This document shows, piece after piece, positions 4,373 through 58,897 of a DNA stretch of 64,000 bases (positions are counted from its first letter, which is position 1; each line of letters starts with the position of its first letter). The translations under genes and the position numbers were made by a program. The stretch lies in assembly GCA_027064425.1 (NCBI GenBank), contig JAMOPO010000057.1:96001-160000 (forward strand), given 5' to 3'. Under the pieces are notes generated by a model. That model was not told where the DNA came from. It made no database searches and saw only the letters and a list, made by a program, of their open reading frames with translations. Source of the stretch: Methanobacteriota archaeon. GTDB taxonomy: Archaea > JAADCQ01 > Methanopyri > Methanopyrales > Methanopyraceae.

Positions 4373-4375
4373 GAG

Positions 4376-7324: not shown

Positions 7325-7332
7325 CGGGTCGA

Positions 7333-7779: not shown

Positions 7780-7800
7780 AGCGATTCCCCCACGTTCCGA

Positions 7801-7830: not shown

Positions 7831-7858
7831 GGCGCGGTGAGGGGGCGTCGGGAGGGCG

Positions 7859-8500: not shown

Positions 8501-9255
8501 CCCTCATCACCCTCCCGGACCTCGATCGCGTCCGCCGGGCAGTTGCGCGCGCACTCCGCGCACCGAATGCACCGATCGTAGTCGATCTCCGCCACGTCCC
8601 CGCGCACTTCCACGGCGTCGACCGGGCAGACCTCCACGCACACCCCGCAGCCGATGCAGGCGCTCTCGTCCAGCCTCACCTCCCGCTCGAACTCGGGAGG
8701 CTCCAGCCGCCTGCGGACTCGGATCGCGTCCACCGGGCAGGCGTGCTCACACGCCCGGCAGCCCACGCACCGGTCCAGGTCGATCTCCAGCGCCTCGAGG
8801 TCGGGCGCATCCACCGGGCAGATTTGAAGGCAGAGACCGCACTTAACGCACCTGGACTCGTCCAGTCGCGCCTCCCTGACCTCGATCTTACGGCGCACCA
8901 CCTCGACCCGCTCCAGCTCGATCTCGACCCTATCGTCCTCTACCCTCGCCTCACCGCGGACCACGCTGAGAGCGTTGACGGGGCAGGACTTCGCGCACAG
9001 GCGGCAGATCACGCAGCTCTCGTGGTCGATCTCCGGCGGCGTGGAGTGGTCGGGCTCCGAGATCGCGTCCACCGGGCACTCCTCGTAGCAGATCTTGCAG
9101 CCCACGCACCGGTCCTCGTCCACGATCACGAACTCCCGCTGCACGGGCCCGACCTCGGAGATGACGCGGCTGACCAGCTCCTCGTCCGCGTCCTCAACCC
9201 GCTCCAGCACCCTTTCAACGAGCTCCTCCACCGGGACGCTCTCACGGACGCTCAC
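8497..9255 (-). CDS. Polyferredoxin, 6 x [4Fe-4S]
   Basis: Six CxxCxxCxxxCP motifs. Confidence 0.9.
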
Positions 9256-27776: not shown

Positions 27777-30700
27777 GTGGCGCCCTTGGCGATAGAGCTC
27801 CGCGTTGAAAAAGCCTACCCCGAGGACGTCGGCAAGCGCGTGGTTCGAATCGACAAGCGCTCCCGCGAGCGGATCGGCGTGGAGCCGGGCGATCTGGTCC
27901 GGGTCACCGGGTCCAAGTCCACCGTCGTGCGCGTTCGACCCGCCAAGCGTGAGGACGTGGGTAAGGGCATCATCCGAATGGACAAGTACGAGCGCCAGAA
28001 CGCGGGCGCGACCGTGGGAGAGCCCGTCGAGGTCGAGCGCGCGGAGGAGCGCGTGGCCAAGCGCGTGGAGCTGATGCCCACGGAGAAGGTCGTCGTGCCC
28101 GTTCAGGCGGGTCTGAAGGAGGAGGTCGAGAAGGAGCTCACGAAGGAGCACGAGCGGGACGTGCTGAACAAGATCAAGGACTACATCCGCACCCAGGCCG
28201 AGCGCGAGCCCATTCCCGCCACCCCGCGCGACGTGATCCCGCTCGAGATTCAGGGCAAGACGATCGCCGGCCACGTCCTCGTCAAGCTCCCCGACAGCGT
28301 GCTCGTCGTGGGTGTCGAGCCCGAGGACGCCACGGTCATCGGGCCCAAGACCGAGGTTATCGTGAAGCCGTACTCCGAGGACCTGGCCAAGGCGGCCGAG
28401 ATCCCGGACGTTACGTACGACGACATCGGCGGCCTCGACCGCGAGATCGAGCAGATCCGCGAGTACGTCGAGCTCCCGCTCAAGCGCCCGGAGCTGCTCA
28501 AGGAGCTGGGCATCAAGCCCCCGAAGGGCGTGCTCCTGTACGGCCCGCCGGGCACGGGTAAGACCCTGCTGGCCAAGGCCGTCGCGAACGAGTGCGGGGC
28601 CAAGTTCTACACGATCAACGGCCCGGAGATCATGAGCAAGTACTACGGTGAGAGCGAGGCCCGCATCCGCGAGATCTTCGAGGAGGCGCGGAAGAACGCG
28701 CCCGCGATCATCTACATCGACGAGATCGACGCGATCGCGCCCAAGCGGGGCGAGACGGGAGAGGTCGAGCGCCGGGTCGTCGCGCAGCTCCTCACCCTGA
28801 TGGACGGCCTCTCCGAGGACGAGCGCGTCGTCGTCCTCGCCTCGACCAACCGACCGGACGACATCGATCCCGCCCTGCGCCGGCCCGGCCGCTTCGACCG
28901 GGAGATCGAGATCGGCGTCCCGGACAAGGAGGGGCGCAAGGAGATCCTTCAGATCCACACGCGGGACATGCCGCTCGCCGACGACGTGGACCTGGACAAG
29001 CTCGCCGAGCTCACGCACGGCTTCACGGGCGCCGACCTGGAGGCCCTGTGCAAGACCGCCGGCCTGAAGGCGCTGAGGCGGGCGATCCGCCGGCTGGGCG
29101 CTAAGCTCGCGGAGAAGGAGGAGAAGGAGGAGGCGGAGGAGGTCTCGGAGAAGGTCTCCGAGCTGTCCGACGAGGAGCTGATGGAGGTGCTGGAGAAGGG
29201 GCTGGACCGGGCCGAGATCCCGGAGGACAAGAAGCGGGCGCTGCGGCGCGTCCTCGAGGAGGCGGAGGAGGTCGAGGAGAAGGAGGAGATCGAGTACTCC
29301 GAGGCCCTGGACAAGGTGCTCGAGGCGGAGGAGGTCGAGATCAAGGAGGAGCTCAAGGTCACGATGGACGACTTCATGGAGGCGCTGAAGGAGATCGAGC
29401 CCTCGGCCCTGCGCGAGGTCATCGTCGAGGTGCCGGACGTGTCCTGGGACGACGTGGGCGGCCTCGAGGACGTCAAGCAGGAGCTGAAGGAGGCCGTGGA
29501 GTACCCGCTGAAGTACCCCGAGGTCTACGAGCGGCTCGGCACGCGCCCACCGCGCGGGATCCTGCTGTACGGCCCGCCGGGCACGGGTAAGACCCTCCTG
29601 GCCAAGGCCGTCGCGAACGAGTCCGACGCCAACTTCATCGCGGTTCGCGGTCCGGAAGTCCTCAGTAAGTGGGTGGGTGAGTCGATCCCTGGCGACGAGG
29701 TTGTTTGGGCGAAAGTTGACGGAGAGGCCAGGCTGGTGCCCATCGAGGAGCTCTACGAGCGGTGGAAGGAGGGCCAGGACATCAAGGTCGCCGCGTTGAC
29801 GGATGAAGGCATCGTCTGGTCACCGGTGGAACGGGTCGCCCGACACCGCCGCCGGACCGGTCTCGTGAAGATCGTCACACGCACAGGCCGGGAGGTCATC
29901 GTTACTGAGGATCACTCCGTATTCACGGTCCGAGACGGCAAGATCGTGGACGTACCGACCTCGGAGCTGTCCGAGGGAGACTGGATCGTCCTACCGGCGA
30001 GACTACCGGCAGGCGACTCAGACGAGATCGATGGCGTCAAGATCGACGAGGATCTAGCATTCCTGCTGGGACTGTACGTGGCTGAGGGCAGCCTGACGAA
30101 CCAGAGGAATGCCGTCAGGATCCACAACAAGGACCCGGAGGTGATCGAGGAGATCGACCGAATCGTGCGAGAGAAGGGGTGGGAGGGCAAGTACTACGAG
30201 AGCGACGGCAGCTACTGGATCAAGAGCTGGGAGTTCAGGCGACTGTGCGAGAAGCTGGGCACGAAAGCCAAGGAGAAGCGGCTCGGGCCGCTCCTGTCGC
30301 TGAAGCCCGAGCTGCTCGCCGCCGCACTGCGCGGATACTACACCGGCGACGGGTCATTCTCGGTGAAGTCGCACGGCCGGTCTGCGACCATCGAGGCGAG
30401 CACCGTGAGCAAGCGGCTGGCGGATGAGCTCCTAGTCGCGCTGCAGATCTTGGGCATCGTGGCTCGCAGGTACGAGTGCGATGACGGGAGGGGAGGCACG
30501 CGGTACCGCGTCATGATCACCAAGTCGGAGTACATCCGCAAGTTCGAGGAGAAGGTTGGGTTCCTGCAGTCTGAGAAAAACGAGCGTATCCGGAAGTTCC
30601 TGGAGGAGAGGAAGTGGACGAGGGGTCGCTCCGACGTCCCGACGGAGCTCGTAGGGAGCCCGTACGCCTACGTCGAGGTCGAGTACATCTCGGACCGGGT

Positions 30701-31529
30701 CGCCGCGAACGGTGGTCTCATGAAAGCGGAGCTCGAGCACCTGTACTTCGACAGAATCAAGGAGATCGTGCCGCTGGACCGCGACGACGAGTACGTCTAC
30801 GACGTCGTGGAGGTGAAGTTGGGCCACAACTTCGTCGGAGGCCAGGGCGTCCTGCTGCACAACTCGGAGAAGAAGATCCGCGAGATCTTCCAGAAGGCGC
30901 GGCAGACGGCCCCGTGCATCATCTTCTTCGACGAGATCGACGCGATCGCACCCAAGCGGGGCACGGAGGTGGGTGGGTCGCGGGTCACGGAGCGGATCGT
31001 GAACCAGCTCCTGACGGAGATGGACGGCATCGAGGCGACGGAGGACGTGTTCGTGATCGCGGCGACCAACCGGCCGGATATCCTGGACGAGGCCCTGCTG
31101 CGCCCGGGCCGGTTCGACCGCATCGTGTACGTGCCGCCGCCGGACGAGGAGGCGATGAAGGAGATCGTGAAGATTCACACGCGGGACATGCCGCTCGCCG
31201 ACGACGTCTCGATCGACGACATCGTGGAGATCCTGAAGCGCAGGGAGGAGGAGGAAGACGCCAAGTACTCCGGCGCAGACATCGAGGCGATCTGCATGGA
31301 GGCCGCGATGCTGGCCCTGCGGGAGGTCATCGACGAGCTGGAGCGGATCGAGGAGGAGGCCGAGTCGGAGAGGGAGCTGGAGGCGCGGAAGGAGGCGCTG
31401 CTGGAGGAGCTCAAGGTGGAGCGCCGGCACTTCGAGAAGGCGGCCGAGAAGGTGCCACCGTCGATCTCGCGGGAGCAGCTGGAGGAGTACGAGAAGCTGA
31501 AGGAGGAGTTCCAGCGGCTGGCGGGGTGA
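27777..31529 (+). CDS. cdc48: CDC48/VCP AAA ATPase containing an intein
   Basis: Double-psi N domain and two AAA modules (GPPGTGKT x2, [10 protein letters not shown] x2); D2 is interrupted between SKWVGE and SEKKIREIF. Confidence 0.97.
29682..30863 (+). mobile_element. Intein (394 aa) with LAGLIDADG homing endonuclease
   Basis: Starts SIPGDE (Ser1); block B VTEDHS; LAGLIDADG motifs [10 protein letters not shown] and [10 protein letters not shown]; ends VYDV...HNF...LLHN followed by extein Ser. Confidence 0.95.
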
Positions 31530-44651: not shown

Positions 44652-46007
44652 ATGACGACCCGGGTAATCGTCGTCGGGGCGGGCCCGGCCGGCCTGTTCG
44701 CCGCCCGCGAGGTCGCCCTACGCGCGGAGAGGGACGTCGAGGTGATCATCTTCGAGCAGGGTCCGGACGTGGACGAGCGGTTGGAGAAGGGCGAGGTCAT
44801 GCGCGGGGTGGGCGGGGCGGGCGGCCTCTCCGACGGCGTGCTCAACCTGCGCCCGGACGTCGGCGGCGACCTGGTCGAGATCGTGGGTAACCGGCGCGAG
44901 GCCGAGCGGCTGGTCGAGTACGTGGACGAGGTCTTCCTGAAGCACGGCGCCCCGAAGGACCTGCGCGAGCCCAAGGGACCCAAGGCCGAGGAGATCGCCC
45001 GCCGGGCCGCCGCCGCGAACGTCGAGTTCGTCCGGATCCCGCAGCGGCACATCGGCTCGGACAACCTGCCCAAGGTGATCAAGTCCTTCGTCCGGGAGCT
45101 TGAGGACCTCGGCGTCCAGATCGTCACCAAGACGCGCGTCGAGCGGATCCTGGCCTCGGGCGAGGAGGTGCGGGGCGTCCGGCTCGAGGACGGTCGGGAG
45201 GTGGAGGCGGACTACGTGATCGTCGCGCCCGGCCGGGTCGGCGCCGACTGGATGATCCGCGAGGCCAAGCGGCTGGGCCTCGGCATCCGCTACAACCCGA
45301 TCGACGTGGGCGTCCGCGTGGAGGTTCCGAAGGTCGTGATGGATCCGATCATCGAAATCTCCCTGGACCCCAAGTTCCGCATGCGCACGCCCACGTACGA
45401 CGACCAGGTCCGCACCTTCTGCGTCTGCCACGGTGGGTACGTGGTCAAGGAGAAATACGAGGGCTTCGTGGGCGTGAACGGGCACTCGTACCGGAAGAAG
45501 AAGTCCGAGAACACGAACTTCGCCTTCCTCGTGAGCATCGACCTGACCGAGCCCGTCGAGAACACGATCAAGTACGGCCGGTCCATCGGCGAGCTCGCGA
45601 CCACCATCGGCGGTAACCGGCCCATCCTGCAGCGCCTGGGTGACCTGCGGCGCGGTCGACGCTCCACCTGGGAGCGGATCAACCGGTCCCAGGTCACGCC
45701 CACCCTGACGGACGTGACCCCGGGCGACGTGTCCATGGCCCTACCGCACCGGGTCACGCTCGACATCATCGAGGGCCTAGAGATGCTTGACGAGGTGATC
45801 CCGGGCGTGGCCTCCGACTCCACCCTGCTCTACGCGCCGGAGATCAAGTTCTACTCCGCCCGTGTGAAGACGAACGAGGAGCTCGAGACGGCGGTCGAGG
45901 GGCTCTTCGTGGCCGGGGACGGGGCCGGCCTCTCCCGGGACATCGTCAACGCGGCCGCCACCGGCGTCATCGCCGGAAGGGCCGTCGCCGAGCGCGTGGG
46001 GGGATGA
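44652..46007 (+). CDS. NAD(P)/FAD-dependent oxidoreductase (COG2509-like)
   Basis: GAGPAG, GVGGAGGLSDG, RHIGSD, VRTFC, VNGHS, NTNFAFL, LYAPEIKFYS, GDGAG. Confidence 0.9.
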   Translation: MTTRVIVVGAGPAGLFAAREVALRAERDVEVIIFEQGPDVDERLEKGEVMRGVGGAGGLSDGVLNLRPDVGGDLVEIVGNRREAERLVEYVDEVFLKHGAPKDLREPKGPKAEEIARRAAAANVEFVRIPQRHIGSDNLPKVIKSFVRELEDLGVQIVTKTRVERILASGEEVRGVRLEDGREVEADYVIVAPGRVGADWMIREAKRLGLGIRYNPIDVGVRVEVPKVVMDPIIEISLDPKFRMRTPTYDDQVRTFCVCHGGYVVKEKYEGFVGVNGHSYRKKKSENTNFAFLVSIDLTEPVENTIKYGRSIGELATTIGGNRPILQRLGDLRRGRRSTWERINRSQVTPTLTDVTPGDVSMALPHRVTLDIIEGLEMLDEVIPGVASDSTLLYAPEIKFYSARVKTNEELETAVEGLFVAGDGAGLSRDIVNAAATGVIAGRAVAERVGG

Positions 46008-46933
46008 GCGTGCTCACCGCGGTGACGAAGCTCCTGCTGCTCGCCCCCCTGGCCCACCCCTCCGGCTGCTGCACGGTCCTGGTCCACGTGAAGGACGACC
46101 ACTACGTGCTCTCCTACCGCCGGGACGCCCGCTCGCCGGCGGAGGTCATCATCGAGCGCACCAACTGGGCCGGGCGACCGGCGCTCAAGGAGTACAAGGA
46201 GAACTCAGGCGGCTACTTCTGCCACACCGTCATCACGGAGGACGGCTGGATCGTCACCATCGGGGGCCGCGACTGCCCGGAGCTCAACCGGGAGCTCGAG
46301 CGACTCGGGCAGCGGATCGCTGAGCGCGGGAGGGTGGCCAAGGAGGATATCCAGCGGGCCGAGAGGATCCTCCGGGAGAACCAGTGGGGTCACTTCGTGG
46401 TCAAGGCGCCGGACGGGACGGTCGGCGTCGCCGTGTACGACTACCGGGTCTCGGCCGGCCGGACCGAGCTGTTCAAGCTGAAGGAGGGAGAGTACGTCAA
46501 GGTGACCAACAACCCGCGGTTCTACGACGTGGGTCGGTTCAGGGAGTACGACCCCGACCCGGTCACGGCCGCGATCAAGGTCGCGGGCAGGGACACGTAC
46601 GGGATCCACCGGCGGGACGTGATCACTTACTACATCAGCCCGAGGAAGCGCGGCGCCAGCGTCCGCGTGTGGGCCTCTTACGACGGCGGCGCCATGGTCG
46701 GCGGAGCGCCGGGCGCCCCGGATCCGGTGAACTTCCTGGGCAAGCGCGTGCCCGCCGACAAGCTTCCGACGATCCCGAAGCGGCTGGAGCTGGGCACGGT
46801 CACGCTGGAGCGGGAGCGCCCGACCGCCCACCGCCACGGGTCCCGGTGGCCGATGGCGGCGGCGCTCATCGCGGCCGGGGTCCTGGGGGTGGGGCTCGGA
46901 ATGACCGTGCTCAGGCGGCGTAAACTATTTTAA
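46004..46933 (+). CDS. Exported, C-terminally anchored protein with GCC(T)...RRD domain (Ntn-hydrolase-like)
   Basis: Signal-like N-terminus, then GCCTVLVHV...SYRRD, GYFCH..IT.DGW...GG.D, GHF..KAPDG; C-terminal TM + RRRK. Confidence 0.65.
   Translation: MSVLTAVTKLLLLAPLAHPSGCCTVLVHVKDDHYVLSYRRDARSPAEVIIERTNWAGRPALKEYKENSGGYFCHTVITEDGWIVTIGGRDCPELNRELERLGQRIAERGRVAKEDIQRAERILRENQWGHFVVKAPDGTVGVAVYDYRVSAGRTELFKLKEGEYVKVTNNPRFYDVGRFREYDPDPVTAAIKVAGRDTYGIHRRDVITYYISPRKRGASVRVWASYDGGAMVGGAPGAPDPVNFLGKRVPADKLPTIPKRLELGTVTLERERPTAHRHGSRWPMAAALIAAGVLGVGLGMTVLRRRKLF
46921..46933 (+). promoter_or_regulatory. Probable BRE/TATA for the tRNA gene
   Basis: TAAACTATTTTAA about 30-40 nt upstream of the mature tRNA 5' end. 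Confidence 0.55.
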
Positions 46934-46964: not shown

Positions 46965-47041
46965 GGGCCCGCAGCTCAGCCTGGTAGAGCGCGGCCCTTG
47001 CGAGGCCGTGGCCCCGGGTTCAAATCCCGGCGGGTCCACCA
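46965..47041 (+). tRNA. trnA: tRNA-Ala(UGC), intronless, CCA encoded, genomic C at position 8
   Basis: Cloverleaf GGGCCCG/CGGGTCC (G3:U70), GCTC/GAGC, CGGCC-CTTGCGA-GGCCG, CCGGG-TTCAAAT-CCCGG, ACCA. Confidence 0.97.
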
Positions 47042-47043
47042 AG

Positions 47044-47074
47044 CCGCGAATCGTTACAGAGTTCAAAACGTTCC
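47044..47074 (+). repeat. Copy 1 of a dispersed ~30-bp motif CCGCGRATCGTTAC-N4-TTCAAAACRTTC
   Basis: Matches 58926-58955. Confidence 0.6.
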
Positions 47075-47088
47075 AAGGGGTGTCCGAC

Positions 47089-48117
47089 GTGCGCAGGCTC
47101 CTTCCGCCCGTGGTGGCGGTCGCGGTGGCGCTCCTGGCGGTCGTCGGGGCGGGCACGGTCGCCTTCAACCCCGCGGACAAGGTCCGCGAGTTCGACCCCA
47201 ACCGCGCGCTGAACTTCGCCAAACAGGTCTGCAAGCTGGGTCCCAGGTACGGTGGCAACGACGCCGAGCTGAAGGCCGCGGACATGATGGAGCGGGAGCT
47301 CAGGAAGTACGGGCTGAACGTATGGAAGGAGAAGGTGGACCTTGGCGGCGGTAAGCACACGTACAACGTGATCGCGGAGATCAAGGGCACGAGGGAGCCG
47401 GACAAGTACGTGATCGTGGGCTCGCACATCGACTCGCCGGGCTTCTGCGAGGGCGCCACCGACGACGCGGCGGCCATGGGCATCCAGGTGGAGATGGCCC
47501 GGGTCCTGGCCAAGAACTTCCGGCCGAAGAAGACGGTCCTGATCATCGGGTTCGGCGGCGAGGAGCTCTGGTTCAAGGGCTCGGAGGCGTTCGTGAAGAA
47601 GCACCCGGACATCGTGAAGAACTGCGTGGCCATGATCGACCTGAACTGCGTGGGAGCCGGTGAGAACGTGTTCCTGACGAGGCGCAGCGCCAAGCCCAGC
47701 CCGGTCGAGGGAGACCCGAACCTGATCCGCACGCTCGAGCGGTGCGCGAGGGAGCTGGGGCACCCGGTGACCGTGGGTGACACGACCTACCCGAGCGACA
47801 CGTACCCGTTCTACCACAACAAGATCCGGCGCGTACCGGTGTGCCAGGTGATGAACCAGCCGTTCAAGGTCCCGCCGTGGAGCGGCTCCAACACGGCCGA
47901 CAAGCTGGATCCGAAGGACATGGAGAAGACGGGTGAGACCGTGACCCTGGCCGTGGTGAAGCTGTCGAACGCGGAGCCCGCCGCGAAGCCGCTGTGGGAG
48001 GAGCAGCGCGAGCGGCAGCGGGCGCAGCAGCGGGGCTGGTTCACGCCCGTGTGGTGGGCGGTGGCGCTCGCGGGCCCGCTGATCCTGGCGATCGCGCGCC
48101 GGGGGCTGGCCCGATGA
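47089..48117 (+). CDS. Exported M28-family peptidase-like protein with C-terminal TM anchor
   Basis: Signal peptide, YNVIAEIKG, GSHIDS, GATDD, GEE, SD.YPF; hydrophobic tail + RR. Confidence 0.85.
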   Translation: MRRLLPPVVAVAVALLAVVGAGTVAFNPADKVREFDPNRALNFAKQVCKLGPRYGGNDAELKAADMMERELRKYGLNVWKEKVDLGGGKHTYNVIAEIKGTREPDKYVIVGSHIDSPGFCEGATDDAAAMGIQVEMARVLAKNFRPKKTVLIIGFGGEELWFKGSEAFVKKHPDIVKNCVAMIDLNCVGAGENVFLTRRSAKPSPVEGDPNLIRTLERCARELGHPVTVGDTTYPSDTYPFYHNKIRRVPVCQVMNQPFKVPPWSGSNTADKLDPKDMEKTGETVTLAVVKLSNAEPAAKPLWEEQRERQRAQQRGWFTPVWWAVALAGPLILAIARRGLAR

Positions 48118-50335: not shown

Positions 50336-51118
50336 TTGACCGAGGTAAAAGTGTTGAAAGAGCCCACGCCCGAGGAGCTAAAGCCGCTGGCCGAGGACCT
50401 CGGCAAGCGACCCGTCCTGATCGCCGGGATCTGCGAGGCGGAGTACCGGGGGCGGGCCGAGTCCCGGGCCGGCCCCGCCCTCCGGCTGGCCATCTGCAAG
50501 CCGGACGGCACCTTCCTGCTGCACAACGCCCTGGAGAAGCGCGAGCCGACCAACTGGAACCCCGCCCCGTCCCGCCAGTCCCTCGAGGTGAGGGACGACC
50601 TCGTCATCCTCCGCTCCCGCCGCCTCGACGTGAGAGAGGAGGTGATCGTGTACTTTCACCGGGTCCTGCTCGCCTGCTCCCTGCCCAAGGAAGGGGCCAG
50701 GAGCGAGGAGTCCGTGTTCTCGCTGTTCAAGTCCGAGGACGACATGAAGCGCGTCATCTGGGAGAATCCGGACGTCATCGAGCCCGGCTTCAAGCCGGTC
50801 AGGGAGGAGGTCGAGTGCCGGGCCGGCATCGCCGACATGATCGGGTACGACGCCGACGGACGCCTCGTGGTCCTCGAGCTCAAGCGGGCCCGGGCCAGCG
50901 TCGACGCCGCCTCCCAGCTCCGCCGGTACGTGGAGGCCTTCCGTGAGGAGCGGGGGGAGGAGGTGCGAGGCATCCTGGTCGCCCCGTCCATCACCGACGG
51001 CTGCCGGCGCCTCCTGGAAAAGTACGGGCTGGAGTGGCGGCAGCTCGAACCCAAAGCCGCGGACCGAGACGGAAAGGGGGACGGCCAGCGCACGCTCACC
51101 GAGTTCCTGGGGGACTGA
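50336..51118 (+). CDS. nucS: Endonuclease NucS/EndoMS
   Basis: CEAEYRGRA.S, KPDGTFLLH, P.NW, SEDDM, ELKR, QLRRYV, RGILVAPSIT; TTG start. Confidence 0.93.
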   Translation: MTEVKVLKEPTPEELKPLAEDLGKRPVLIAGICEAEYRGRAESRAGPALRLAICKPDGTFLLHNALEKREPTNWNPAPSRQSLEVRDDLVILRSRRLDVREEVIVYFHRVLLACSLPKEGARSEESVFSLFKSEDDMKRVIWENPDVIEPGFKPVREEVECRAGIADMIGYDADGRLVVLELKRARASVDAASQLRRYVEAFREERGEEVRGILVAPSITDGCRRLLEKYGLEWRQLEPKAADRDGKGDGQRTLTEFLGD

Positions 51119-51120
51119 GC

Positions 51121-51771
51121 TTGGTTCGCGTCAAGATCTGCGGGATCACCCGTCCCGAGGACGCGCAGACCGCGGAGGAGGCCGGGGCAGACGCGGTCGG
51201 GTGCGTGACCGAGGTCCCCGTACCGAGCCCGCGCTCCGTGGGCGCTGAAACCGCAAACGAGATTCTTTCCACAGTGTCCCCCTTCGTTTCCAAAGTGACG
51301 GTAGTGATGGACGACCTGGGAGTGCTCGAGCGCGTCGAAGAGGCCACCGTCGCTCAGCTTCACGGGACGGAAAGCCCGGAGGACTGCGAGCGGGCGAGGG
51401 AGCTCGGGTACGAGGTCGTCAAGACGCTGTGGGTCGACGCGTCCGGGCGCCTGTGGCTGGGAGACGACCGAGTCGACGACGAGACCCTGTCCAAGTACCT
51501 GGAGGTCGTGGACGCCCTCCTTCTGGACACCAGGTCCGAGGAGGGTGGAGGCAGCGGACGCACCCACGACTGGTCGGCCTCGGCCGAGATCGTCGAGCGG
51601 GTGGACGTCCCGGTGATCCTCGCCGGCGGGCTGAACCCGGAGAACGTCGAGCGGGCTGTCAGGGAGGTGCGTCCCCACGCCGTCGACACCTCCTCCGGCG
51701 TCGAGCGGGAGCCGGGCGTCAAGGACCCCGAGGCCGTGCGAGAGTTCGTGCGCCGCGCCAAGCACGCGTGA
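51121..51771 (+). CDS. trpF: Phosphoribosylanthranilate isomerase
   Basis: VKICGIT, SPRSV, QLHG.E, GGSGRTHDW, LAGGLNPENV, VDTSSGVE. Confidence 0.95.
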   Translation: MVRVKICGITRPEDAQTAEEAGADAVGCVTEVPVPSPRSVGAETANEILSTVSPFVSKVTVVMDDLGVLERVEEATVAQLHGTESPEDCERARELGYEVVKTLWVDASGRLWLGDDRVDDETLSKYLEVVDALLLDTRSEEGGGSGRTHDWSASAEIVERVDVPVILAGGLNPENVERAVREVRPHAVDTSSGVEREPGVKDPEAVREFVRRAKHA

Positions 51772-54700
51772 TCACCAGCCGGTCGTCCACCCAACCCTCT
51801 CCCGCCGACCAGCCCGCGCCCACGCCCCCAGCCCGATCGCCAGCCCGACCAGGACCAGCAGCAGTAGACGCTGCAGCCACGCCGGCACCGGGGAGCCCGA
51901 GGTGGGCGAGCCCTGCCGAGTGAAGGATACGGCGGGGGTTCTACCCCCGGAGCGCCCGGTCCCGGAGGACGGTCTCGAGATTCCCTCGGCGGACACGACG
52001 CCCGAGGCGGCGATCGACCTCGAAAGTTCCCCGCCGCGGAGCGAGATCGAGGCCGCCGCACGCACCCTACCGGCGCCCATCACGGTGGAGCCCGCCGCGG
52101 CGGGCCGGATCACCTGAGCGCCGGCGGCGCGCGGCTGGGGCGATGGCGGCGAGATCCGGGGCGCGTGGGGCCGGTTGGCCGCGGTGATATCCCTAGAGGT
52201 GGTGCGGGCCGTCCGAGCGACCCGCGTGACCCGCGTCAGGGCTCGGGCGATTGAGGCGGTCACCGTGACGGCGCTCGTGACCAGTCGGCCGACGACGGTG
52301 CCGCCGTTGAGTGCCGTGGATGCGGCGGTGGGCTGGGTGACCGCGCCGGTGACCGTTCCCGGGACGGCGCCCGTCGGGCCGCGGGTTACGCCGGCCGGGG
52401 TCGCCCGGCTCACGGGGGGAGGGACCGGAACGGGTCTCGCCGGTGTGAGCGCCGTGGGCGTCGGTGACGGTCGGCCGGTGGGGGCCGGTTTGGTCGCGAT
52501 GATGCCCGCGGAGAACGGGTTGGGCAGGAACGCTCCGACCGGGCTGACCAGGGAGGTCACGGACCTCAGGACCGGGTTGGCGGCCTCCTCGAAGCACCCG
52601 CACCAGCCGTACTCCCGGACCAGGCGCGCGTACAGCTCGAGGGAGCGTGAGAGTACCGCGTTCTTCGCCTCCTCGACCCACCGCCCCACGCGGCTCAGCT
52701 CACCTCTCCACACCATGACCAGGGCGTGGTACGTCCGGCGGAGCAGGGTCTCACCCGACTGGTAGTACAGGTGGAAGACTCGGGCGACGATCGCCTCCAG
52801 GGCGTACGGGTTAACCCGCTCCAGGCGGTCAACGACCTCACGGTCGAGCACGAGCCGCCGCGTGACCTCGTAAAGGAGCTGGCCCAGGGCGCCCGCGAGC
52901 GCCTCCTCGGTCGGGGTCCCGGGGGACTCGACGGCGGGCCAGAGAGCGGCGATTAGGCCCAGCAGTCGTGACACCCGCTCGAACAGCGCGCTGGCCTGCC
53001 CCGGGGAGCTGAGCGACAGGATCCAGCCTCGGTCCAGGAGCAGCGAGTGGAACTCCCGCAGCAGCTCCGCGTGGAGCGGGACGAGCTCCATCGTGGTTAA
53101 GTCGAGGAGTCGGAGGTCCAGGCACGAGCCCCTCACCGCGCGGCTGAGGGCGCAGCAGGCGACGCCGAACTCCAGAACGTCCTCGGCGAGAGCTCCCCAG
53201 ATCCGGTCGGTCTCCGGCTTCACGATCTGGTCGACCAGGAGGAGCTCCAGCTCGAACATTCTCGGGTCCGAGACAGGACCCTCGGGCAGCAGGACCCGAC
53301 CCAGCTTGGCGGGCAGGGAGGAGACGAACTGCCCCCATTCACGGAGCTCGAGCCGCTCGGCGAGCGCCCGGACGCCGGTCGTGTAGTCCGCTGGGCAGTA
53401 CAGGGCCGCGGCGGCGCGCCTGGCGGCCTCCTCTACCGGGAGTCCCTCCACCTGCACGCCGTACAGGAACTTCACGGCCCACGCCTCGTACCAGAGCGGG
53501 TCCGGGTTGAAGTCGGGTGACGTGAGCAGCTCGATCGGGATCCTGCGGTACCACTCTCTCAGGACCTCCAGCCCGCGATGGAGCAGGCTCGGGTCAACGT
53601 GGATTTGCTCCAGCGCGGCCCGGAGCTCGGGATCCCGACACTCGGCCCTCAACCGCTCCAGGAGCCGCTCCAGCTCGACCGCCGGGCACCGGGTGGAGGC
53701 CCTCAGCACGCACGCCAGGTGCGCCTTGAACAGCGCGAGCCCCGGACGGCACCGGACGAAGATGGCCTCAAGCCCCTGACAAACTAGGACCGGAACGTAA
53801 GGTGGGGAGCCCGAGAGCACGTACCCGGAGACGCCCTTCCTAAGCCCGGTGGACCGCAGCAGGTAGGCCAAGGAGACGCCCCGGTCGTTGATTAGGTCCG
53901 TGGCGGAGAGGATGAAGAGCGTGGGCAGCTTCGGCGGCCGCAGGTTCTCGGCGACGTGCCAGGCCGCTTCGGTGGGGAGCTCGTCTGGGTTCAGGACGTA
54001 CAGCATCCGACCGGTGGGCAGAACGGAGGGGTCTAGGGTCGGGTCACCGGGCGGTCCGGTGGGGATCCGTCGGCCGTCGAGCACCCGGAGCAGGTCCTCG
54101 ATCTCCAGTCGGGCGGACTCGACCACGAGCCGTCGGATCCGCTCCGCCTCGTGGTAAAGATCGGGGTAAGCCGACCGCAGCTCGTCCGGGTGAGACACCA
54201 GGCGATCCCACTCACGCCAGAGCTCGTTCAGCAGTCGGAGGGCCCGATCGGGCTGCCCGTAGATCATCCGGTTCAGGTCCTCTAGGCTCATTCCGCGGCG
54301 CTCGAGCGCCCGCTTCAGGAACTCACGGAAGAGCACGGCTCGCACGTAGGCCCGCACCTCCTCCGAGGTCACGAGGCCGTATACGTGCAGTGAGCGGGCG
54401 AGACTCGCCGGCACCGGGCGCTCACCGTGACTCTGCATCGCGTGCAGGTAGAGGTGTAGCAGGTTTACCAGCCGCCCGAACCCCTCCTCCGTCCGCGCCA
54501 TCCGGACCACGTCGTCCCACCTGAGCCCCATCCACTCGTACAGTCCGGTGATCCGGAGCGTCTCCAGGATAAGCGGGCGCAGCCGATCCGCGAGCTTGGG
54601 GTCACCGGACTGGAACCAGTGAAAGCACTCGTGCAGCGCCTCCACGAGCGTCCGCAGGTAGAACTCCGTCGCGGTCTCCGGGGGTGGCGGCAAGTACCCG

Positions 54701-56127
54701 ATGACTACCGCGCTCGTCCTCCACTTGACGTTCAGCAGCTCTCCGCTCGTCACGCACCACAGGTACACGTGCGGGACGTCGCCCAGCAGCACCGTCGGGA
54801 AGTCCACGTGGGAGAGCAGCGTCCGACGCAGCGGCAACCACTCCAGCGTTCCGTGCGTGCCCACGTGGACGACGACGTCGACCGTCCGCTTCAGCCACAG
54901 GTACACGGCCAGGTAGTAGTGAGGCGGCGGGAGTAGCAGTGAGTGGTACACGACCGCCGACTCGAGTGAGCCCCAGAGCCAGCCGCGCGGGGGCTGGGGC
55001 AGCAGGAGCACCTTCCCGAGCTTCAGACCCGGGACCACGAAGTGCCCATCGACGACCATCACATCGCCCGGTGGGGGACCCCAACCAAAGAGTCCAGTCC
55101 GGTACCCCAGCAGCCGCTCGAACTCCCGACCGGCTTTCAGCGCCCGCTCGAACTCCCGCCGGAGCTCTGACACGCTGGCGCGGCCGGATGCGTACTCCAC
55201 CAACCCCTCCACCAGCCGGGAGAGCGCCCTCAGCGCCTCCTCCCTGGCCCTCGAAACGTCCCCCGAGCCGCCGGTGTTGAAACCGGCCGGGGCCACGGAA
55301 GACAGCAGGCGCTCCGCCTCCCGCAGCAGGGTCTGAAGCGAGCGCTTCAGCGTCTCCAGTTCCCGCTCGCCTAACGGGGGTTTGAGGAGCCGGGCGTACC
55401 CGTAAAGGAGCCCGGGCAGGCCGTCCTCCACGTACAACCGGACGACCTCGGGCAGCCTCGCGTACCAGCGCTCGTACGTGCTGACGGGAATCAGCGCGAG
55501 GTAGGCGTGGTGCTCGTACATCCTGCGCAGCCGCTCCTCGTCCCACCATCCCACGTTGATCCCGTAGCTCCAGATCAAGCGGGCGAGTTCACCCTCCAGC
55601 CTCTTCACCAGCCGGGCCGCCTCGTCCCACCGACCCTGCCGCTCGAGCCGGGCGATCTCGAGCAGCTCCCGGTCCCAGGGCGTCCTGACGTCGTAACCCG
55701 CGGCCCTGAGGTTGGCCAGGATGTTGACGAGTGATCCGAACACGTCCAATCCGGAAGCCGTGATGGACTCTCGGCCGGGCGGCCAGTCGTAATAAATCAG
55801 CGCGACGATCTTCTCGCGGTTGGGCTTCTTCGCCAGCTCCCTCCAGCGCTCCTCGAGCCTTCGAACTATGGCCTGGTTCTCGGGGTAGGGGTGACCCGCC
55901 AGCCGAGTGGGCGGTGTGACGATGGCCCCTTCAGCGTCCGGGAGCACGACCTCGCGGAAGAAGGTGGGAGTCGGGTACCCCAGCGGGTCCGCCCGGTACT
56001 CCACCGGCGGCACTCCCGCGTCGGGCTCGTGAAACGGCAGCTGCGGCGCGTCGGCCGCCGCGGGCTGCAGCGCGAGGAGTAGGGCGATCAGCAGCCGCCA
56101 CCTCCCCCCGGCGGCCGGGGTCCTCAC
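51772..56127 (-). CDS. Exported, membrane-anchored CobN/BchH chelatase homolog (degenerate C-terminal half)
   Basis: Signal peptide (LLIALLLALQPAAA); CobN motifs N.EK.VALIYY..PPG, LDVFGSL, WGPPPG, PQPPRG, PPPHYYLA.Y.WL, HVGTHGTLEWLP, LPTGR; Pro/Thr-rich linker, TM, basic tail. Confidence 0.82.
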   Translation of the reverse strand: MRTPAAGGRWRLLIALLLALQPAAADAPQLPFHEPDAGVPPVEYRADPLGYPTPTFFREVVLPDAEGAIVTPPTRLAGHPYPENQAIVRRLEERWRELAKKPNREKIVALIYYDWPPGRESITASGLDVFGSLVNILANLRAAGYDVRTPWDRELLEIARLERQGRWDEAARLVKRLEGELARLIWSYGINVGWWDEERLRRMYEHHAYLALIPVSTYERWYARLPEVVRLYVEDGLPGLLYGYARLLKPPLGERELETLKRSLQTLLREAERLLSSVAPAGFNTGGSGDVSRAREEALRALSRLVEGLVEYASGRASVSELRREFERALKAGREFERLLGYRTGLFGWGPPPGDVMVVDGHFVVPGLKLGKVLLLPQPPRGWLWGSLESAVVYHSLLLPPPHYYLAVYLWLKRTVDVVVHVGTHGTLEWLPLRRTLLSHVDFPTVLLGDVPHVYLWCVTSGELLNVKWRTSAVVIGYLPPPPETATEFYLRTLVEALHECFHWFQSGDPKLADRLRPLILETLRITGLYEWMGLRWDDVVRMARTEEGFGRLVNLLHLYLHAMQSHGERPVPASLARSLHVYGLVTSEEVRAYVRAVLFREFLKRALERRGMSLEDLNRMIYGQPDRALRLLNELWREWDRLVSHPDELRSAYPDLYHEAERIRRLVVESARLEIEDLLRVLDGRRIPTGPPGDPTLDPSVLPTGRMLYVLNPDELPTEAAWHVAENLRPPKLPTLFILSATDLINDRGVSLAYLLRSTGLRKGVSGYVLSGSPPYVPVLVCQGLEAIFVRCRPGLALFKAHLACVLRASTRCPAVELERLLERLRAECRDPELRAALEQIHVDPSLLHRGLEVLREWYRRIPIELLTSPDFNPDPLWYEAWAVKFLYGVQVEGLPVEEAARRAAAALYCPADYTTGVRALAERLELREWGQFVSSLPAKLGRVLLPEGPVSDPRMFELELLLVDQIVKPETDRIWGALAEDVLEFGVACCALSRAVRGSCLDLRLLDLTTMELVPLHAELLREFHSLLLDRGWILSLSSPGQASALFERVSRLLGLIAALWPAVESPGTPTEEALAGALGQLLYEVTRRLVLDREVVDRLERVNPYALEAIVARVFHLYYQSGETLLRRTYHALVMVWRGELSRVGRWVEEAKNAVLSRSLELYARLVREYGWCGCFEEAANPVLRSVTSLVSPVGAFLPNPFSAGIIATKPAPTGRPSPTPTALTPARPVPVPPPVSRATPAGVTRGPTGAVPGTVTGAVTQPTAASTALNGGTVVGRLVTSAVTVTASIARALTRVTRVARTARTTSRDITAANRPHAPRISPPSPQPRAAGAQVIRPAAAGSTVMGAGRVRAAASISLRGGELSRSIAASGVVSAEGISRPSSGTGRSGGRTPAVSFTRQGSPTSGSPVPAWLQRLLLLVLVGLAIGLGAWARAGRRERVGWTTGW

Positions 56128-56236
56128 CCCGCCACGTTAGGTTCCAATAAGACCGATCCCGGAACCCTTTTAGTGCGCATCGGTAACAACATCTGGGTGG
56201 GAGTTAGTACTACGCGGTACGTTGGGGGCCTCGTTA

Positions 56237-57631
56237 GTGAGAATAGTAATACCCACCCTGCTCGGGTTGCTGGTGGCGCTCGGTGGCGCCTCCGCGGGGC
56301 TCCAGGAGTGCAAGCAGGCCTACTTGGATGCCGCTAAAATCGAGGAGTACGGTGGCAAGCTTCGGGAGGCGCTCAACACCATTGGCGGCTTCCAGCCACC
56401 GTGCGGGCTGAAGGTGGTTCCGACGGCGTACCCGTACATGGCGCTCAAGGATGACAAGAGCGCGATCCAGACGGTGTTCGAGGGGACCGACGTCGCGGAG
56501 TCCGGCTCGTGGACGGAGGTGGGACCGGGCGACTTCCGGGCGCTGATCTACGGGATCCACGAGCTGAGTGAGAACTGGTTCAAGCGCGTCAGCACCGTGG
56601 TCGACCTGGCTCAGGAGCCGGCCAAGTGGGCGCTGAAGGTGCACGAGGAGACGCACGCGTGGGAGGGAGCCGTGGAGAAGGTGGGCGAGACGTGGGACGC
56701 GTGGGAGCAGCACAAGGGCTCCGATGACCTGAAGACGGCCATCGCATCCCGGACGCTGGCGGTGCTGGGCCTGGTCGTGTCCGAGAACTGGCGGGCGATC
56801 TTCAACGAGGCGAACAAGGCCGCGCACATCGCCGCCAACGTCGGGAAGGTGGAGATTCCGGCGGGCGTATACGGTAACGACAACCCGATCGAGTTGGACT
56901 TCAGCAAGTGCGAGACGCCGGGAGACGTGACCGGCGTGATTAAGGGCCTGATCAAGGCGGTCTTCGGCGACGACCAGCTGACGCCGGCGCGGGTGATCGC
57001 GCTCATCGACAGGGAGGCGGAGCACTTCGGACTGGGTAGCAACTTCGTCGAGACGTACCTGGAGGGTGGGCAGTACGAGCCGCACCCGGGCGGGTTCACT
57101 AAGGACGAGATGAAGCAGGTGATCGAGCTGTTCAAGCAGGGCAAGGACGTCTACGGTCAGCCGCTCTCTGAGGACGCGCTGGCGTTCGCGGTGCTGTTCA
57201 GCATCGAGAACGTGTGGGCAACGTACGAGGAGTACGTGCACCAGTACGGCCACTTCTTCCCGCCCGCGGCCGACGACGCCAAGCTGGCACGCGATAAGAT
57301 CCAGGAGGCGGTGAGCGACCTGGTGTCCGTACTGGACAAGCTGAACGCGTGGGCGGACGTAGGCATCACGAAGGTTAAGCTGAAGTCCAACCCGATCGAG
57401 TGCGCGCCGGCGGTGAAGGACTGGGCGGTAGGCCAGCTGTTCGGTGCGGTGGGGCAGCTACAGCAGAAGGTCAGCGAGCTCGAGAGCAAGGTCAGCGAGC
57501 TCGAAAAGAAGGGGGCCGGCAAGGGGACCGGCAAGGGCGAGACAGGGAAGGGTGGTAAGGGCGTGCCGGTGAACCCGCTGGTCGCGCTGGCCGGACTGGT
57601 GACGGTCCTGGTCGCGCTCCGGCGGCGCTAA
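56237..57631 (+). CDS. Exported protein of unknown function with coiled coil, G/K linker and GVPVNP-TM-RRR tail
   Basis: Signal peptide ending ASA; KVSELESKVSELEKK; GVPVNPLVALAGLVTVLVALRRR. Confidence 0.8.
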   Translation: MRIVIPTLLGLLVALGGASAGLQECKQAYLDAAKIEEYGGKLREALNTIGGFQPPCGLKVVPTAYPYMALKDDKSAIQTVFEGTDVAESGSWTEVGPGDFRALIYGIHELSENWFKRVSTVVDLAQEPAKWALKVHEETHAWEGAVEKVGETWDAWEQHKGSDDLKTAIASRTLAVLGLVVSENWRAIFNEANKAAHIAANVGKVEIPAGVYGNDNPIELDFSKCETPGDVTGVIKGLIKAVFGDDQLTPARVIALIDREAEHFGLGSNFVETYLEGGQYEPHPGGFTKDEMKQVIELFKQGKDVYGQPLSEDALAFAVLFSIENVWATYEEYVHQYGHFFPPAADDAKLARDKIQEAVSDLVSVLDKLNAWADVGITKVKLKSNPIECAPAVKDWAVGQLFGAVGQLQQKVSELESKVSELEKKGAGKGTGKGETGKGGKGVPVNPLVALAGLVTVLVALRRR

Positions 57632-57675
57632 CGCTCCTCCTCACTCTTTCCTTACCCACCTGTCCCGCCCTCCCT
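57632..57675 (+). terminator. Pyrimidine-rich tract; possible terminator/attenuator
   Basis: CTCCTCCTCACTCTTTCCTTACCC directly after the stop. Confidence 0.4.
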
Positions 57676-57697
57676 AGGTCCTCTCGGGGGTGGTCGA

Positions 57698-58897
57698 TTG
57701 AGGTGGTGGCTAATTCTCGTGCTAGGGGCGCTTCTAGCCGCTGCGCCCGCCCGGGCGGACCTGGCTGACCAGGTGCGGGATCGGTGCGTTAAGGCGACCC
57801 AGTGGCTGATCGAGCATCAGCGCCCGGACGGCGGTTGGCTCTACGAGGGCACAAACAAGTCCTCGAGCATGGACACCGGCGTGGTCCTGCTGGGACTCTC
57901 CGAGTTTTACAACCGAGCGCCGGAGAATCTGAAGCCAAGAATCAAGGAGGCCGTGGACCGAGGCGTCTCATACGTCTTGAAGTGCTGGGACTCGAACCGG
58001 AAGATGTTCTGGGATTACCCGGGGCAGAGTGAGCACGAGGACTGGCTGCCGATGTACACGGTGCACGCGCTCATGGGGCTGATCGCGGTCGAGAAGCACT
58101 TCCCAGACATCGCCAAGAAGTACAACGTCGACCGGTACGTGACGGAGGCACTGGAGAGGCTGATGAGCCTGCAGCGGCCCGACGGGACGTGGGCCAACTT
58201 CGGCCCGGGCTCCTGGCAGGACCCGTACCGGTGCACGCCGATCGTGGTCTGGCTGGCGGAGTGGTCGGGCAAGTACAAGCCCAGCGACCCGCGCGTCAAG
58301 AGGGCGTTGGAGTGGATCGAGGGGATCCTGACGAGGTCGCCCCTGGGCGGCCTGATCTCGCGGGGGGTCAAGATCGACTTCACCGCGTGGGACCTGCTGG
58401 CGTTTTACTACTCCGGCGATCGGTACTACCGGAGCTTCGTGCCGAAGCTGCAGCAGGGACTGTTGGGATTCCAGAGGAAGGATGGTGCGTTCGCCGCGCA
58501 CACCTCGGTGAATGACACGGTGTACGGCCCGAACGGCACGGCGGCGCCCTGCCCGCACAAGACGGCCCGGGTGCTCTTCGCCCTAATGAAGACGGGGATG
58601 GACCCGTTCGGCGACCGGATCAAGCGGGCCGTGGAGTTCCTGCTGAACACCAAGAGCCAGGACCCGGACGGGTCGTGGTTCTGGCCCACGATGGATAATC
58701 CGAGCAAGCCGCAGGAGGTGGCCTGCCGGGCGTACTCCACGGGCTGGTGCCTGGCGGCGCTGGCGGCGTGGCTGGAGAAGGCGCAGCGGAGCCAGCAGGG
58801 CATCCAGCGAGGGGGTAAGAGACCTAGGGTGCCGGTCAGCCCGGCGATCACACTGGTTGGGCTGATAGCCGCCCTGATTGCGCCCAGGCGGTTCTAG
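57698..58897 (+). CDS. Exported prenyltransferase/squalene-cyclase-repeat (alpha/alpha barrel) protein with VPVSP-TM tail
   Basis: QW-type repeats WLIEHQRPDGGW, LMSLQRPDGTW, LLGFQRKDGAF, SQDPDGSW; signal peptide; RVPVSPAITLVGLIAALIAPRRF; no DxDD motif. Confidence 0.85.
   Translation: MRWWLILVLGALLAAAPARADLADQVRDRCVKATQWLIEHQRPDGGWLYEGTNKSSSMDTGVVLLGLSEFYNRAPENLKPRIKEAVDRGVSYVLKCWDSNRKMFWDYPGQSEHEDWLPMYTVHALMGLIAVEKHFPDIAKKYNVDRYVTEALERLMSLQRPDGTWANFGPGSWQDPYRCTPIVVWLAEWSGKYKPSDPRVKRALEWIEGILTRSPLGGLISRGVKIDFTAWDLLAFYYSGDRYYRSFVPKLQQGLLGFQRKDGAFAAHTSVNDTVYGPNGTAAPCPHKTARVLFALMKTGMDPFGDRIKRAVEFLLNTKSQDPDGSWFWPTMDNPSKPQEVACRAYSTGWCLAALAAWLEKAQRSQQGIQRGGKRPRVPVSPAITLVGLIAALIAPRRF

Follow-up and report, generated by a model that had tools for sequence, protein, structure and literature searches.

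We describe a cluster of three genes at positions 51772-58897 of a 64,000-nucleotide stretch of archaeal DNA (hereafter the window; positions 96,001 to 160,000 of contig JAMOPO010000057.1, assembly GCA_027064425.1, our G000:C57:96001-160000), which probably encodes an HmuS-type exported protein of the chelatase superfamily together with a lineage-specific set of partners and a probable new C-terminal sorting signal. The genome is 1.54 Mb in size with 67.8% GC, and orthologues recorded in public sources carry the names Methanopyrus sp. or M. kandleri. The favoured interpretation of our analysis is that the three products form an ATPase-independent chelatase or dechelatase module of the cell surface that would work in the manner of HmuS, to which we assign a probability of about 0.4.

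Class I chelatases of the CobN/ChlH/HmuS superfamily include both cytoplasmic and extracytoplasmic proteins. According to a 2025 paper (PMC12583661), which is the source of the HmuS residues and motifs named below, HmuS (BtuS1/BtuS2, Bacteroidota; PDB 9d26/9p4s) is tethered by N- and C-terminal helices, handles periplasmic haem without ATP, and needs a reductant, namely NADH with membranes. It carries an HFG(T/A)HG loop in which replacement of His-538 abolishes haem turnover. The same text describes archaeal CobN/HmuS homologues as many, often present as several paralogues, and of unclear use. A 2011 paper on Methanothermobacter mentions several CobN genes and proposes unrelated chelatase homologues for nickel insertion.

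Layout of the cluster

The interval is filled by three open reading frames (ORFs), all of which have the coding signature of the genome, with GC contents of 0.88-0.90 at the third codon position (GC3) and 0.40-0.50 at the second (GC2). The ORFs and the region from which they diverge are as follows.

51772..56127, minus strand: P0001, a protein of 1451 amino acids (aa), headless, predicted to be exported and related to the CobN/HmuS superfamily (ORF and translation, PF02514, orthologues in all congeners examined)
56222..57631, plus strand: P0002, a 469-aa genus-restricted orphan, predicted to be exported (ORF and translation)
57698..58897, plus strand: P0003, a 399-aa protein that is modelled as one (alpha/alpha)6 toroid and has four QW-type repeats, predicted to be exported (PF13243, TIGR01787, AlphaFold2 model)
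56128..56221, no strand: divergent intergenic region between the P0001 and P0002 genes (ORF boundaries)

The gene of the orphan P0002 is divergent from that of P0001, and the toroid gene starts 66 nucleotides downstream of it. An earlier reading made from the sequence only had described three adjacent genes around an intergenic region at 56128-56236, each gene with a signal peptide and a C-terminal transmembrane (TM) segment and basic anchor. The arrangement and the terminal segments are borne out by inspection by eye and are kept in orthologues. The extent of the intergenic region depends on the start of the orphan: the earlier boundaries hold if the in-frame GTG at 56237 is used, and are replaced by 56128-56221 if translation starts from the TTG at 56222. 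The Atlas record of the orphan begins at residue 6, which is the GTG. Alignment of the divergent spacer with four other genomes revealed little conservation and no recognisable operator.

A chelatase-superfamily protein, predicted to be exported, without head and neck

P0001 is, by homology, a member of the CobN/ChlH/HmuS class I chelatase superfamily. It matches PF02514 with 310.7 bits (cut-off 24.5) in three stretches, the best of which covers profile positions 354-736, and its closest solved relatives are CobN (9uk9, 1.9e-40), HmuS (9d26, 9e-40) and ChlH (4zhj, 5e-33). It scores at roughly a sixth or less of the cut-offs of all CobN and BchH equivalogs (NF004644, 199.4 vs 1248 bits; TIGR02257, 178 vs 822; TIGR02025, 165 vs 829). 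The alignment to the solved structures consists of three blocks, residues 43-167, 333-556 and 659-727, which span domain III/IV and the PTGRN region. Because the first block begins only at HmuS 284, CobN 350 and ChlH 403, which fall on P0001 residues 43-77, the protein is without the head and neck domains; profile positions 1-178 of PF02514 are likewise unmatched. The earlier description of a CobN homologue that is shortened at its N-terminus and divergent in its C-terminal half is thus accurate on both points, the latter in that the C-terminal half gave no significant match against solved structures. Language-model features of this half are CobN-like (score 0.94, 190 shared features, 30 of 30 matches belonging to PF02514), which we treat as a lead only. 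The following motifs were located in the protein.

54850..54867, minus strand: HVGTHG, residues 421-426, aligned with HmuS 534-539, His425 corresponding to HmuS His-538
54619..54636, minus strand: LHECFH, residues 498-503, subfamily-specific; CobN 9uk9 has DEYY there
54004..54018, minus strand: PTGRM, residues 704-708, the superfamily PTGRN motif, with P704, T705, G706 and R707 invariant
53167..53184, minus strand: EDVLEF, residues 982-987, the domain V motif with Asp for His (MAFFT alignment of 16 CobN-family proteins; weak HmuS alignment)
52594..52602, minus strand: CGC, residues 1176-1178, invariant, near the end of the folded body (orthologue alignment)

The HxGTHG core, which the sequence-only reading had reported as kept, is present as HVGTHG, and its residues H421, G423, H425 and G426 are invariant in 8/8 orthologues down to 37% overall identity. 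The eight orthologues include three proteins of 1447-1453 aa; one clusters with a record named Methanopyri archaeon. The same set retains H499, C501 and H503 in all eight members, and E982, D983, E986 and F987 of domain V, H558/H562 and C1176/G1177/C1178 are also without exception. Since PTGR, ED..EF, H499/C501/H503, H558/H562 and C1176/C1178 are all invariant, the His/Cys pattern would argue for a constrained, metal-ligand-rich site and not for a decayed scaffold.

Domain V deserves separate mention. The P0001 segment reads AEDVLEFGVA, compared to DLDHYYEFLGG in the canonical cytoplasmic CobN of Methanopyrus. The GG that follows the motif is gone in this species; distant orthologues have AEDVVEFLGG. 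Asp at the position of the His is found in 9/13 of the exported CobN-like proteins that were aligned with MAFFT, from Methanopyrus and other archaea.

Linkage to a toroid family and duplication of the pair

Searched with PF02514, this genome yields a single canonical CobN of the cytoplasmic type (1171 aa, 1024 bits). A further copy, on contig C26, is split, and P0001 belongs to a group of five paralogues that are exported and anchored. A gene of the toroid family adjoins 5/5 of the exported paralogues; four of these toroids were detected by Pfam or the toroid profile, and the fifth (581 aa) by BLAST against another member of the family (3e-10 over 370 aa) and by profile (1.5e-12). In each of the two closed congeners (G001 and G002) a toroid-profile match lies within ~3 kb at 4/5 exported CobN loci. 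Conserved linkage of the two families, whose absence the earlier reading had named as evidence against its proposal, is thus a regular feature of these genomes. The nearest-paralogue pairs are identical in the CobN-like and toroid families: the locus at C15:85k pairs with that at C3:61k (CobN 40% identity, toroid 32%), and C15:330k with C15:217k (CobN 28% over 1378 aa, toroid 24% over 370 aa). Because the closest pairs are the same in both families, they fit duplication of the whole module, and the CobN-like/toroid pair appears to have been duplicated and kept together five times.

Outside the genus the picture is different. Among 115 other archaeal genomes sampled, PF02514 occurs in 18 and PF13243 in 20; both occur in 2, on different contigs, although this count of co-occurrence is a lower bound because PF13243 misses divergent toroids. 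The toroid profile had no match at any of 10 exported-CobN loci from 6 other archaeal genomes. The pairing is new here, in that a literature search found no paper on it.

The three genes as a set are syntenic in G001, G002 and G003, with interspecies identities of 53-84% vs 76-94% for the flanking housekeeping genes. On contig L044 of a more distant Methanopyri metagenome-assembled genome (MAG), an orphan homologue, cut by the contig end, is divergent to a CobN-like gene, which is followed, as in this genome, by a flank of trpF, nucS and the gene of a 453-aa protein.

Several observations concern individual members of these families. One exported CobN paralogue (G000:C15:324000-338000; L030 ~3108-9234, minus strand) is present as two overlapping frames of 1224 and 1260 aa and has RVGGRG for HxGTHG. 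In G001 and G002 the orthologue occupies one uninterrupted frame (2032 and 1951 aa, respectively). The split could stem from an assembly error or a frameshift, or the copy could be decaying. The split CobN on C26 (G000:C26:24000-37000, L032) has its N- and C-terminal halves on opposite strands, 4883-6241(-) and 6210-8282(+), head to head and with an mtrH-like neighbour, and this arrangement recurs in G001, G002, G003 and G005. Another CobN-like/toroid pair is adjoined by the gene of a 490-aa PVxP-CTERM protein predicted to be exported (L028:3222-4694, minus strand; G000:C3:58221-59693). We considered an identity with the class II chelatase CbiX for this neighbour and rejected it, the match being sub-threshold (E 0.007) and unconfirmed by PDB and NCBIfam searches. 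Contigs C9, C10, C43, C55 and C39, each a few kb long, carry near-duplicate genes of toroid and coiled-coil PVxP-CTERM proteins, and on C39 the orphan/toroid pair recurs with 78% identity, in a form similar to the G003 orthologue. The short-contig duplicates could be genuine paralogues at which the assembly breaks, or they could come from a related strain that was co-assembled.

Anchors and a candidate sorting signal

Signal peptides and anchors were judged by eye from the sequence and from conservation in orthologues. In each of the three N-termini a basic n-region precedes a hydrophobic core and an AxA site, all kept in orthologues, with putative cleavage after residue 25 in P0001 (AAA/DA), after 25 in P0002 (ASA/GL) and after 20 in P0003 (ARA/DL). 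The terminal segments are given below.

56053..56127, minus strand: P0001 signal peptide, residues 1-25 (RWR, LLIALLLAL, AAA/DA), recognised by eye in the translation, with the same layout in orthologues
51895..52503, minus strand: P0001 low-complexity stalk of ~200 aa, residues 1209-1411, rich in S/T/A/G/P/R (translation; GC2 rises to 0.67-0.77, GC3 0.86)
51772..51894, minus strand: P0001 anchor, consisting of SPVPAW, a 17-aa hydrophobic segment at residues 1421-1437, RAGRRER and a tail ending in W (translation, orthologues)
57563..57631, plus strand: PVxP-CTERM of the orphan, VPVNP followed by 14 hydrophobic residues, RRR and the stop (translation, orthologues)
58829..58897, plus strand: PVxP-CTERM of the toroid, VPVSP followed by 13 hydrophobic residues, PRRF and the stop (translation, orthologues)

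With a cleavable-looking signal peptide at one end and a membrane anchor at the other, each of the three products should be exported and membrane-tethered, its body lying between the membrane and the envelope of pseudomurein and protein. The P0001 stalk, which is preceded by PNPFSAG, is present in orthologues though poorly conserved. The C-terminal frame is validated by the orthologues, which at 37-76% overall identity keep G1411, L1418, L1421, R1441 and W1451, and the ending of TM segment, basic residues and final W is shared by all five exported paralogues and by the orthologues seen to the C-terminus (G001, G002, P0043, P0045). Across the 8 aligned orthologues the position of the final W (W1451) does not vary.

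The anchor of P0001 is of a different type from the PVxP tails of the orphan and the toroid. A regular expression for PVxP, TM segment and RR(R) at the C-terminus is matched by 15 of 1305 coding-like ORFs in the genome, whereas internal windows gave a mean of 0.1 and a maximum of 1 in 20 rounds, and a signal-peptide-like N-terminus is present in 13/15 of the PVxP-tailed ORFs. The set consists mostly of toroids and of coiled-coil stalk proteins of ~600-660 aa, in several copies. The genome has a single gene of the exosortase/archaeosortase family (PF09721, 29.4 bits; TIGR04178, 41.3 bits vs cut-off 23), and a gene of the archaeosortase family was found in 6/6 Methanopyrus genomes. The enzyme remains below the cut-off of every named subtype (best heimdallarchaeosortase, 45 vs 130 bits; ArtA 30.3 vs 75), and none of the NCBIfam sorting-domain models reached its cut-off on four PVxP tails (best PGF_CTERM, 10.5 vs 24.5 bits). 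The elements in question are these.

Window 57563-57631 and 58829-58897: the PVxP tails; G000:C57:74023-74505 (L033:4024-4509): the archaeosortase-family gene

Similarly to described archaeosortase systems (PGF-CTERM/ArtA etc.), the PVxP tails place a hydrophobic helix and then a basic cluster behind a short motif at the extreme C-terminus, and a family gene is present in the same genome, but PVxP, the candidate signal, differs from PGF, PEF and VPXXXP. The tails and the archaeosortase-family gene together look like a probable undescribed sorting system of Methanopyrus, in which the unclassified enzyme of the genus probably recognises the signal shared by orphan and toroid. A literature search found no paper on a Methanopyrus sorting signal of this kind. 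N-glycosylation sequons were uninformative, with 0, 0 and 3 in the three proteins compared to a genome median of 0 per 100 aa.

The toroid protein

P0003 matches PF13243 (SQHop_cyclase_C) at 2.9e-10 (40.1 bits vs 26.1) and TIGR01787 at 1.3e-20. It contains four QW repeats of the form Q-x(2,3)-DG-x-W/F, at residues 41, 159, 259 and 321, and its AlphaFold2 model, built from 18 sequences with a mean predicted local distance difference test (pLDDT) score of 86, shows one (alpha/alpha)6 toroid. In structural comparisons the highest scores went to squalene cyclase 1gsz (Z 28.3, root-mean-square deviation 3.2, 299 aligned residues, 19% identity) and drimenyl diphosphate synthase (Z 28.2), followed by GH76 mannanases and sugar epimerases (Z 26-27, ~10% identity) and by thioester domains (Z 22-24). 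Two features distinguish its sequence.

57863..57874, plus strand: SSMD where class II cyclases have DxDD (aligned with 10 SHC-like proteins, 10/10 of which have DxDDT/A)
58550..58558, plus strand: Cys-Pro-His in a long loop (AAPCPHKTA), identical in 5 orthologues and absent from paralogues

The toroid paralogues have AWH, PLY and PLY at the DxDD place. The Cys-Pro-His loop is modelled with low to moderate confidence, and neither of the thioester motifs CGEQ and CxEQ was found in P0003. In comparison with the single-domain class II terpene-cyclase-like toroids (8pak/8paj, MstE 6sbb) and with 1gsz, P0003 shares the fold and the QW repeats (Z 24-28, 17-19% identity) but differs in having no DxDD acid, in being exported and C-terminally anchored as far as its termini indicate, and in its position beside a CobN-like gene. 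Of the two statements made on this protein from sequence, the absence of the DxDD cyclase motif is confirmed, whereas the analogy drawn with the alpha domain of transcobalamin finds no support: it is class II terpene cyclases, GH76 enzymes and sugar epimerases that match best, and transcobalamin is not among the 50 matches listed by the wide structural search or among those listed by Foldseek.

The orphan protein

An exhaustive search of 1.84 billion representatives gave P0002 two matches, both of which belong to its own lineage. The protein occurs in 5/5 congeners and in none of 25 other archaeal families. Searches of Pfam and NCBIfam, a PDB profile search, Foldseek and the wide structural search assigned it no family or fold, and Atlas was uninformative. 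Two of its segments can be described.

56642..56656, plus strand: invariant HEETH (HExxH), residues 141-145, in 8/8 sequences including a 53%-identical homologue, within a long predicted helix
57458..57511, plus strand: short coiled-coil heptads, LQQKVSELESKVSELEKK (translation)

The model of P0002 has a pLDDT of 68.8 with a high-scoring core at residues 130-340, and the HEETH lies in the helix 119-154. A comparison with zincin-type metallopeptidases gave no match to a peptidase family or fold. The tail region is common to the ~600-660-aa coiled-coil surface proteins of the genome. P0002 is thus confined to its lineage; it appears to be helical, has an invariant HExxH and carries a short stalk of coiled coil. 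A kinship with two proteins encoded beside other CobN loci, of 630 and 581 aa, was considered and rejected because profile comparison was unconvincing (probabilities 57% and 12%).

Possible function of the module

We infer that the three proteins may handle a tetrapyrrole or a metal. In the interpretation that we favour, the three genes would encode one cell-surface module of Methanopyrus, in which the body of P0001 would act like HmuS, that is, outside the cytoplasm, tethered to the membrane, and with neither an AAA+ partner nor ATP. It may remove or exchange the metal of a metallo-tetrapyrrole held in the central cleft, by means of the retained His425. The toroid could serve as a dedicated ligand-binding or hand-over partner and the HExxH orphan as a metal-binding accessory, with haem, a corrinoid, an F430-type nickel tetrapyrrole or free metal as candidate substrates.

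The comparison with HmuS supports this interpretation in several respects. Like HmuS, P0001 has the essential His and no adjacent AAA+ gene, its body is predicted to be extracytoplasmic and tethered by hydrophobic segments at the termini, and the earlier characterisation of it as HmuS-like in topology and in its missing ATPase neighbour seems well founded. So is the claim that no CobS/T or ChlI/D partner is nearby: none of ChlI, ChlD, CobS and CobT is encoded in the flanks of the cluster, and genes of ChlD/I-like ATPases sit on other contigs. Unlike the TM anchor of HmuS, the N-terminal segment of P0001 looks like a cleavable signal peptide; its long low-complexity stalk and its QW toroid and HExxH orphan partners also distinguish it, and there are no hmuY/R/T/U/V genes in the window flanks. 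Another group of relatives consists of orphan exported archaeal CobN-like proteins, which had a signal peptide and a C-terminal TM/basic anchor in 10/10 cases inspected (6 genomes), as in P0001, and most of which share the Asp of domain V. They differ in being 1250-2400 aa long, in that most keep the N-terminal part, and in their tail (…YEVS…GYF…).

A number of observations weigh against HmuS-like activity. P0001 is without the head and neck domains that hold the haem site of HmuS (Met-79/His-254). The second His of the cleft, His-1209 in HmuS and part of DLDH in the canonical Methanopyrus CobN, is Asp in P0001, where the HmuS sequence LSLDHxxEFMGG (His-1209, Glu-1212) is replaced by ALAEDVLEFGVA, with the Glu kept and the GG lost. 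HmuS needs a reductant, whereas the cluster encodes neither an electron donor nor a metal transporter. More broadly, no transporter, reductant source or metal regulator was found within the cluster or the window flanks examined. No ExbB/ExbD-type stator was found near the CobN loci of this genome, which has no match to ExbD (PF02472), and its sole MotA/ExbB-family gene (G000:C27:19000-33000, L045 ~6790-7552, plus strand), which forms a stator-like pair with a downstream DUF2149 gene whose product has a TM segment at its N-terminus, is located away from all CobN loci. The fold of the toroid is generic, with GH76 enzymes and epimerases almost equal to terpene cyclases in Z, and no tetrapyrrole binder is among the structural matches listed for it. 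The model of the orphan fits no known fold, the best Foldseek match having an E value of 0.012 and the best VIA match, on helical hairpins only, a Z of 9.5. Finally, the organism has its own cytoplasmic CobN, and it lives in metal-rich vent fluid, where a need for scavenging is not obvious.

The main rival explanation, which we regard as somewhat unlikely, is that the cluster builds or modifies the cell envelope: the toroid would bind or act on the carbohydrate of pseudomurein or surface glycans, and the orphan and the CobN-like protein would be structural parts of an irregular outer protein layer, the chelatase chemistry having been lost. Methanopyrus indeed has a pseudomurein layer and an outer protein layer without regular order, according to PMC4243693. 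Terpene cyclases outscore GH76, GH88/105 and sugar epimerases only narrowly as matches to the toroid model; the abundance of multi-copy toroids and coiled-coil stalks among PVxP-CTERM proteins fits abundant envelope proteins; and the fast interspecies divergence of the three genes and the CobN paralogue with a degenerate RVGGRG and a frameshift in this assembly point in the same direction. On the other hand, the sequence of the toroid sides with QW-repeat cyclase and prenyltransferase proteins (17-19% identity vs ~10% for glycosidases, and the TIGR01787 match of 1.3e-20), no glycosidase acid pair was identified in it, and P0001 keeps the catalytic His, PTGR and many invariant His/Cys residues that a purely structural role would not need. 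We consider it unlikely that the proteins capture free nickel, cobalt, iron or zinc through their His/Cys clusters and the HExxH of the orphan and pass it to transporters encoded elsewhere, with no tetrapyrrole involved. The subfamily-specific invariant residues H499/C501/H503, H558/H562 and C1176/C1178, the HEETH of the orphan, the conserved Cys-Pro-His in the toroid loop and the absence from P0001 of the tetrapyrrole site of the HmuS head and neck would all agree with such a role, but the cleft motifs retained in P0001 are those that surround the tetrapyrrole in its relatives, and no transporter or metal-responsive regulator is linked to the cluster.

Two further explanations carry far less weight. 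The toroid could be terpene-cyclase-like or prenyl-binding and act on archaeal polyprenyl lipids, the CobN-like protein being unrelated to its function; its best sequence and fold matches (squalene-hopene cyclase, drimenyl diphosphate synthase) and its four QW repeats would suggest this. We find it highly improbable, given that P0003 has SSMD instead of DxDD and its paralogues show no trace of the motif, that the protein has a single domain and is not a two-domain cyclase, and that the strict pairing with CobN-like genes is left unexplained. Hardly any credence can be given to the idea that P0001 is an ordinary cytoplasmic cobaltochelatase CobN of B12 synthesis, as its PF02514 match and the name 'cobaltochelatase subunit CobN' that sources give its orthologues might imply. 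Canonical CobN and ChlH/BchH (PDB 9uk9, 7c6o, 4zhj) share domains III/IV, the HxGTHG loop and the PTGRN region with P0001, but they are cytoplasmic, full-length and dependent on CobS/T or ChlI/D, whereas P0001 has a signal peptide and a C-terminal anchor, is headless and has no partner ATPase nearby. Its equivalog scores are far under the cut-off (199 vs 1248 bits), and the full-length canonical CobN with 1024 bits is encoded elsewhere in the genome.

The interpretation as an HmuS-type module can be extended to the whole set of loci. In this bolder form, which we consider rather unlikely, the genome would encode five paralogous ATP-independent surface chelatases or dechelatases, each with its own toroid carrier, sorted by the PVxP/archaeosortase system and tuned to a different metallo-tetrapyrrole (haem, corrinoid, F430-type nickel), which would strip or swap iron, cobalt and nickel outside the membrane.

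Genomic neighbourhood

The cluster stands alone amid housekeeping genes. It is flanked on one side by genes of an M28 peptidase, a 453-aa protein, a histone-fold protein, NucS and TrpF, and on the other by those of topo VI-A, a KH protein, a RIO kinase and TyrRS. An ORF at 50656-51765 on the minus strand (369 aa), considered as a candidate fourth gene of the operon, was rejected because it is antisense to trpF (PF00697) and nucS (PF01939/PF21003) and lacks the coding signature; together with the housekeeping flanks, this is the reason for regarding the cluster as isolated. Its translation is rich in Arg, Ser and Gly and gives a tblastn conservation of ~50% in congeners, an instance of the trap that a GC content of 68% sets for ORF callers.

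A few kb from the cluster, the M28-family peptidase (window 47008-48117, plus strand) and a family-less 309-aa protein (46004-46933, plus strand; …AAALIAAGVLGVGLGMTVLRRRKLF) each have a C-terminal hydrophobic segment followed by arginines, and may be further anchored surface proteins. A tail similar to that of the peptidase occurs in the Methanopyri MAG (L044:8553-9635). Elsewhere in the window, at 27777-31529 on the plus strand, a gene of a 1250-aa CDC48/AAA ATPase is split by an intein with a LAGLIDADG homing-endonuclease domain (PF14890, PF14528).

Significance

The locus offers a compact, testable case for the archaeal CobN/HmuS homologues whose use is unclear, in the form of a minimal headless body that keeps the catalytic His, with a toroid partner family that appears to have been retained through five duplications and a lineage-only HExxH protein at the same locus. 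If the extension to five surface machines were true, the large class of orphan exported archaeal 'CobN' proteins would receive its first function; if instead the module is structural, the main anchored surface proteins of Methanopyrus would have been identified. The locus also points, in a hyperthermophile with an uncharacterised outer protein layer, to a C-terminal sorting signal that is probably undescribed and has an archaeosortase-type enzyme of its own.

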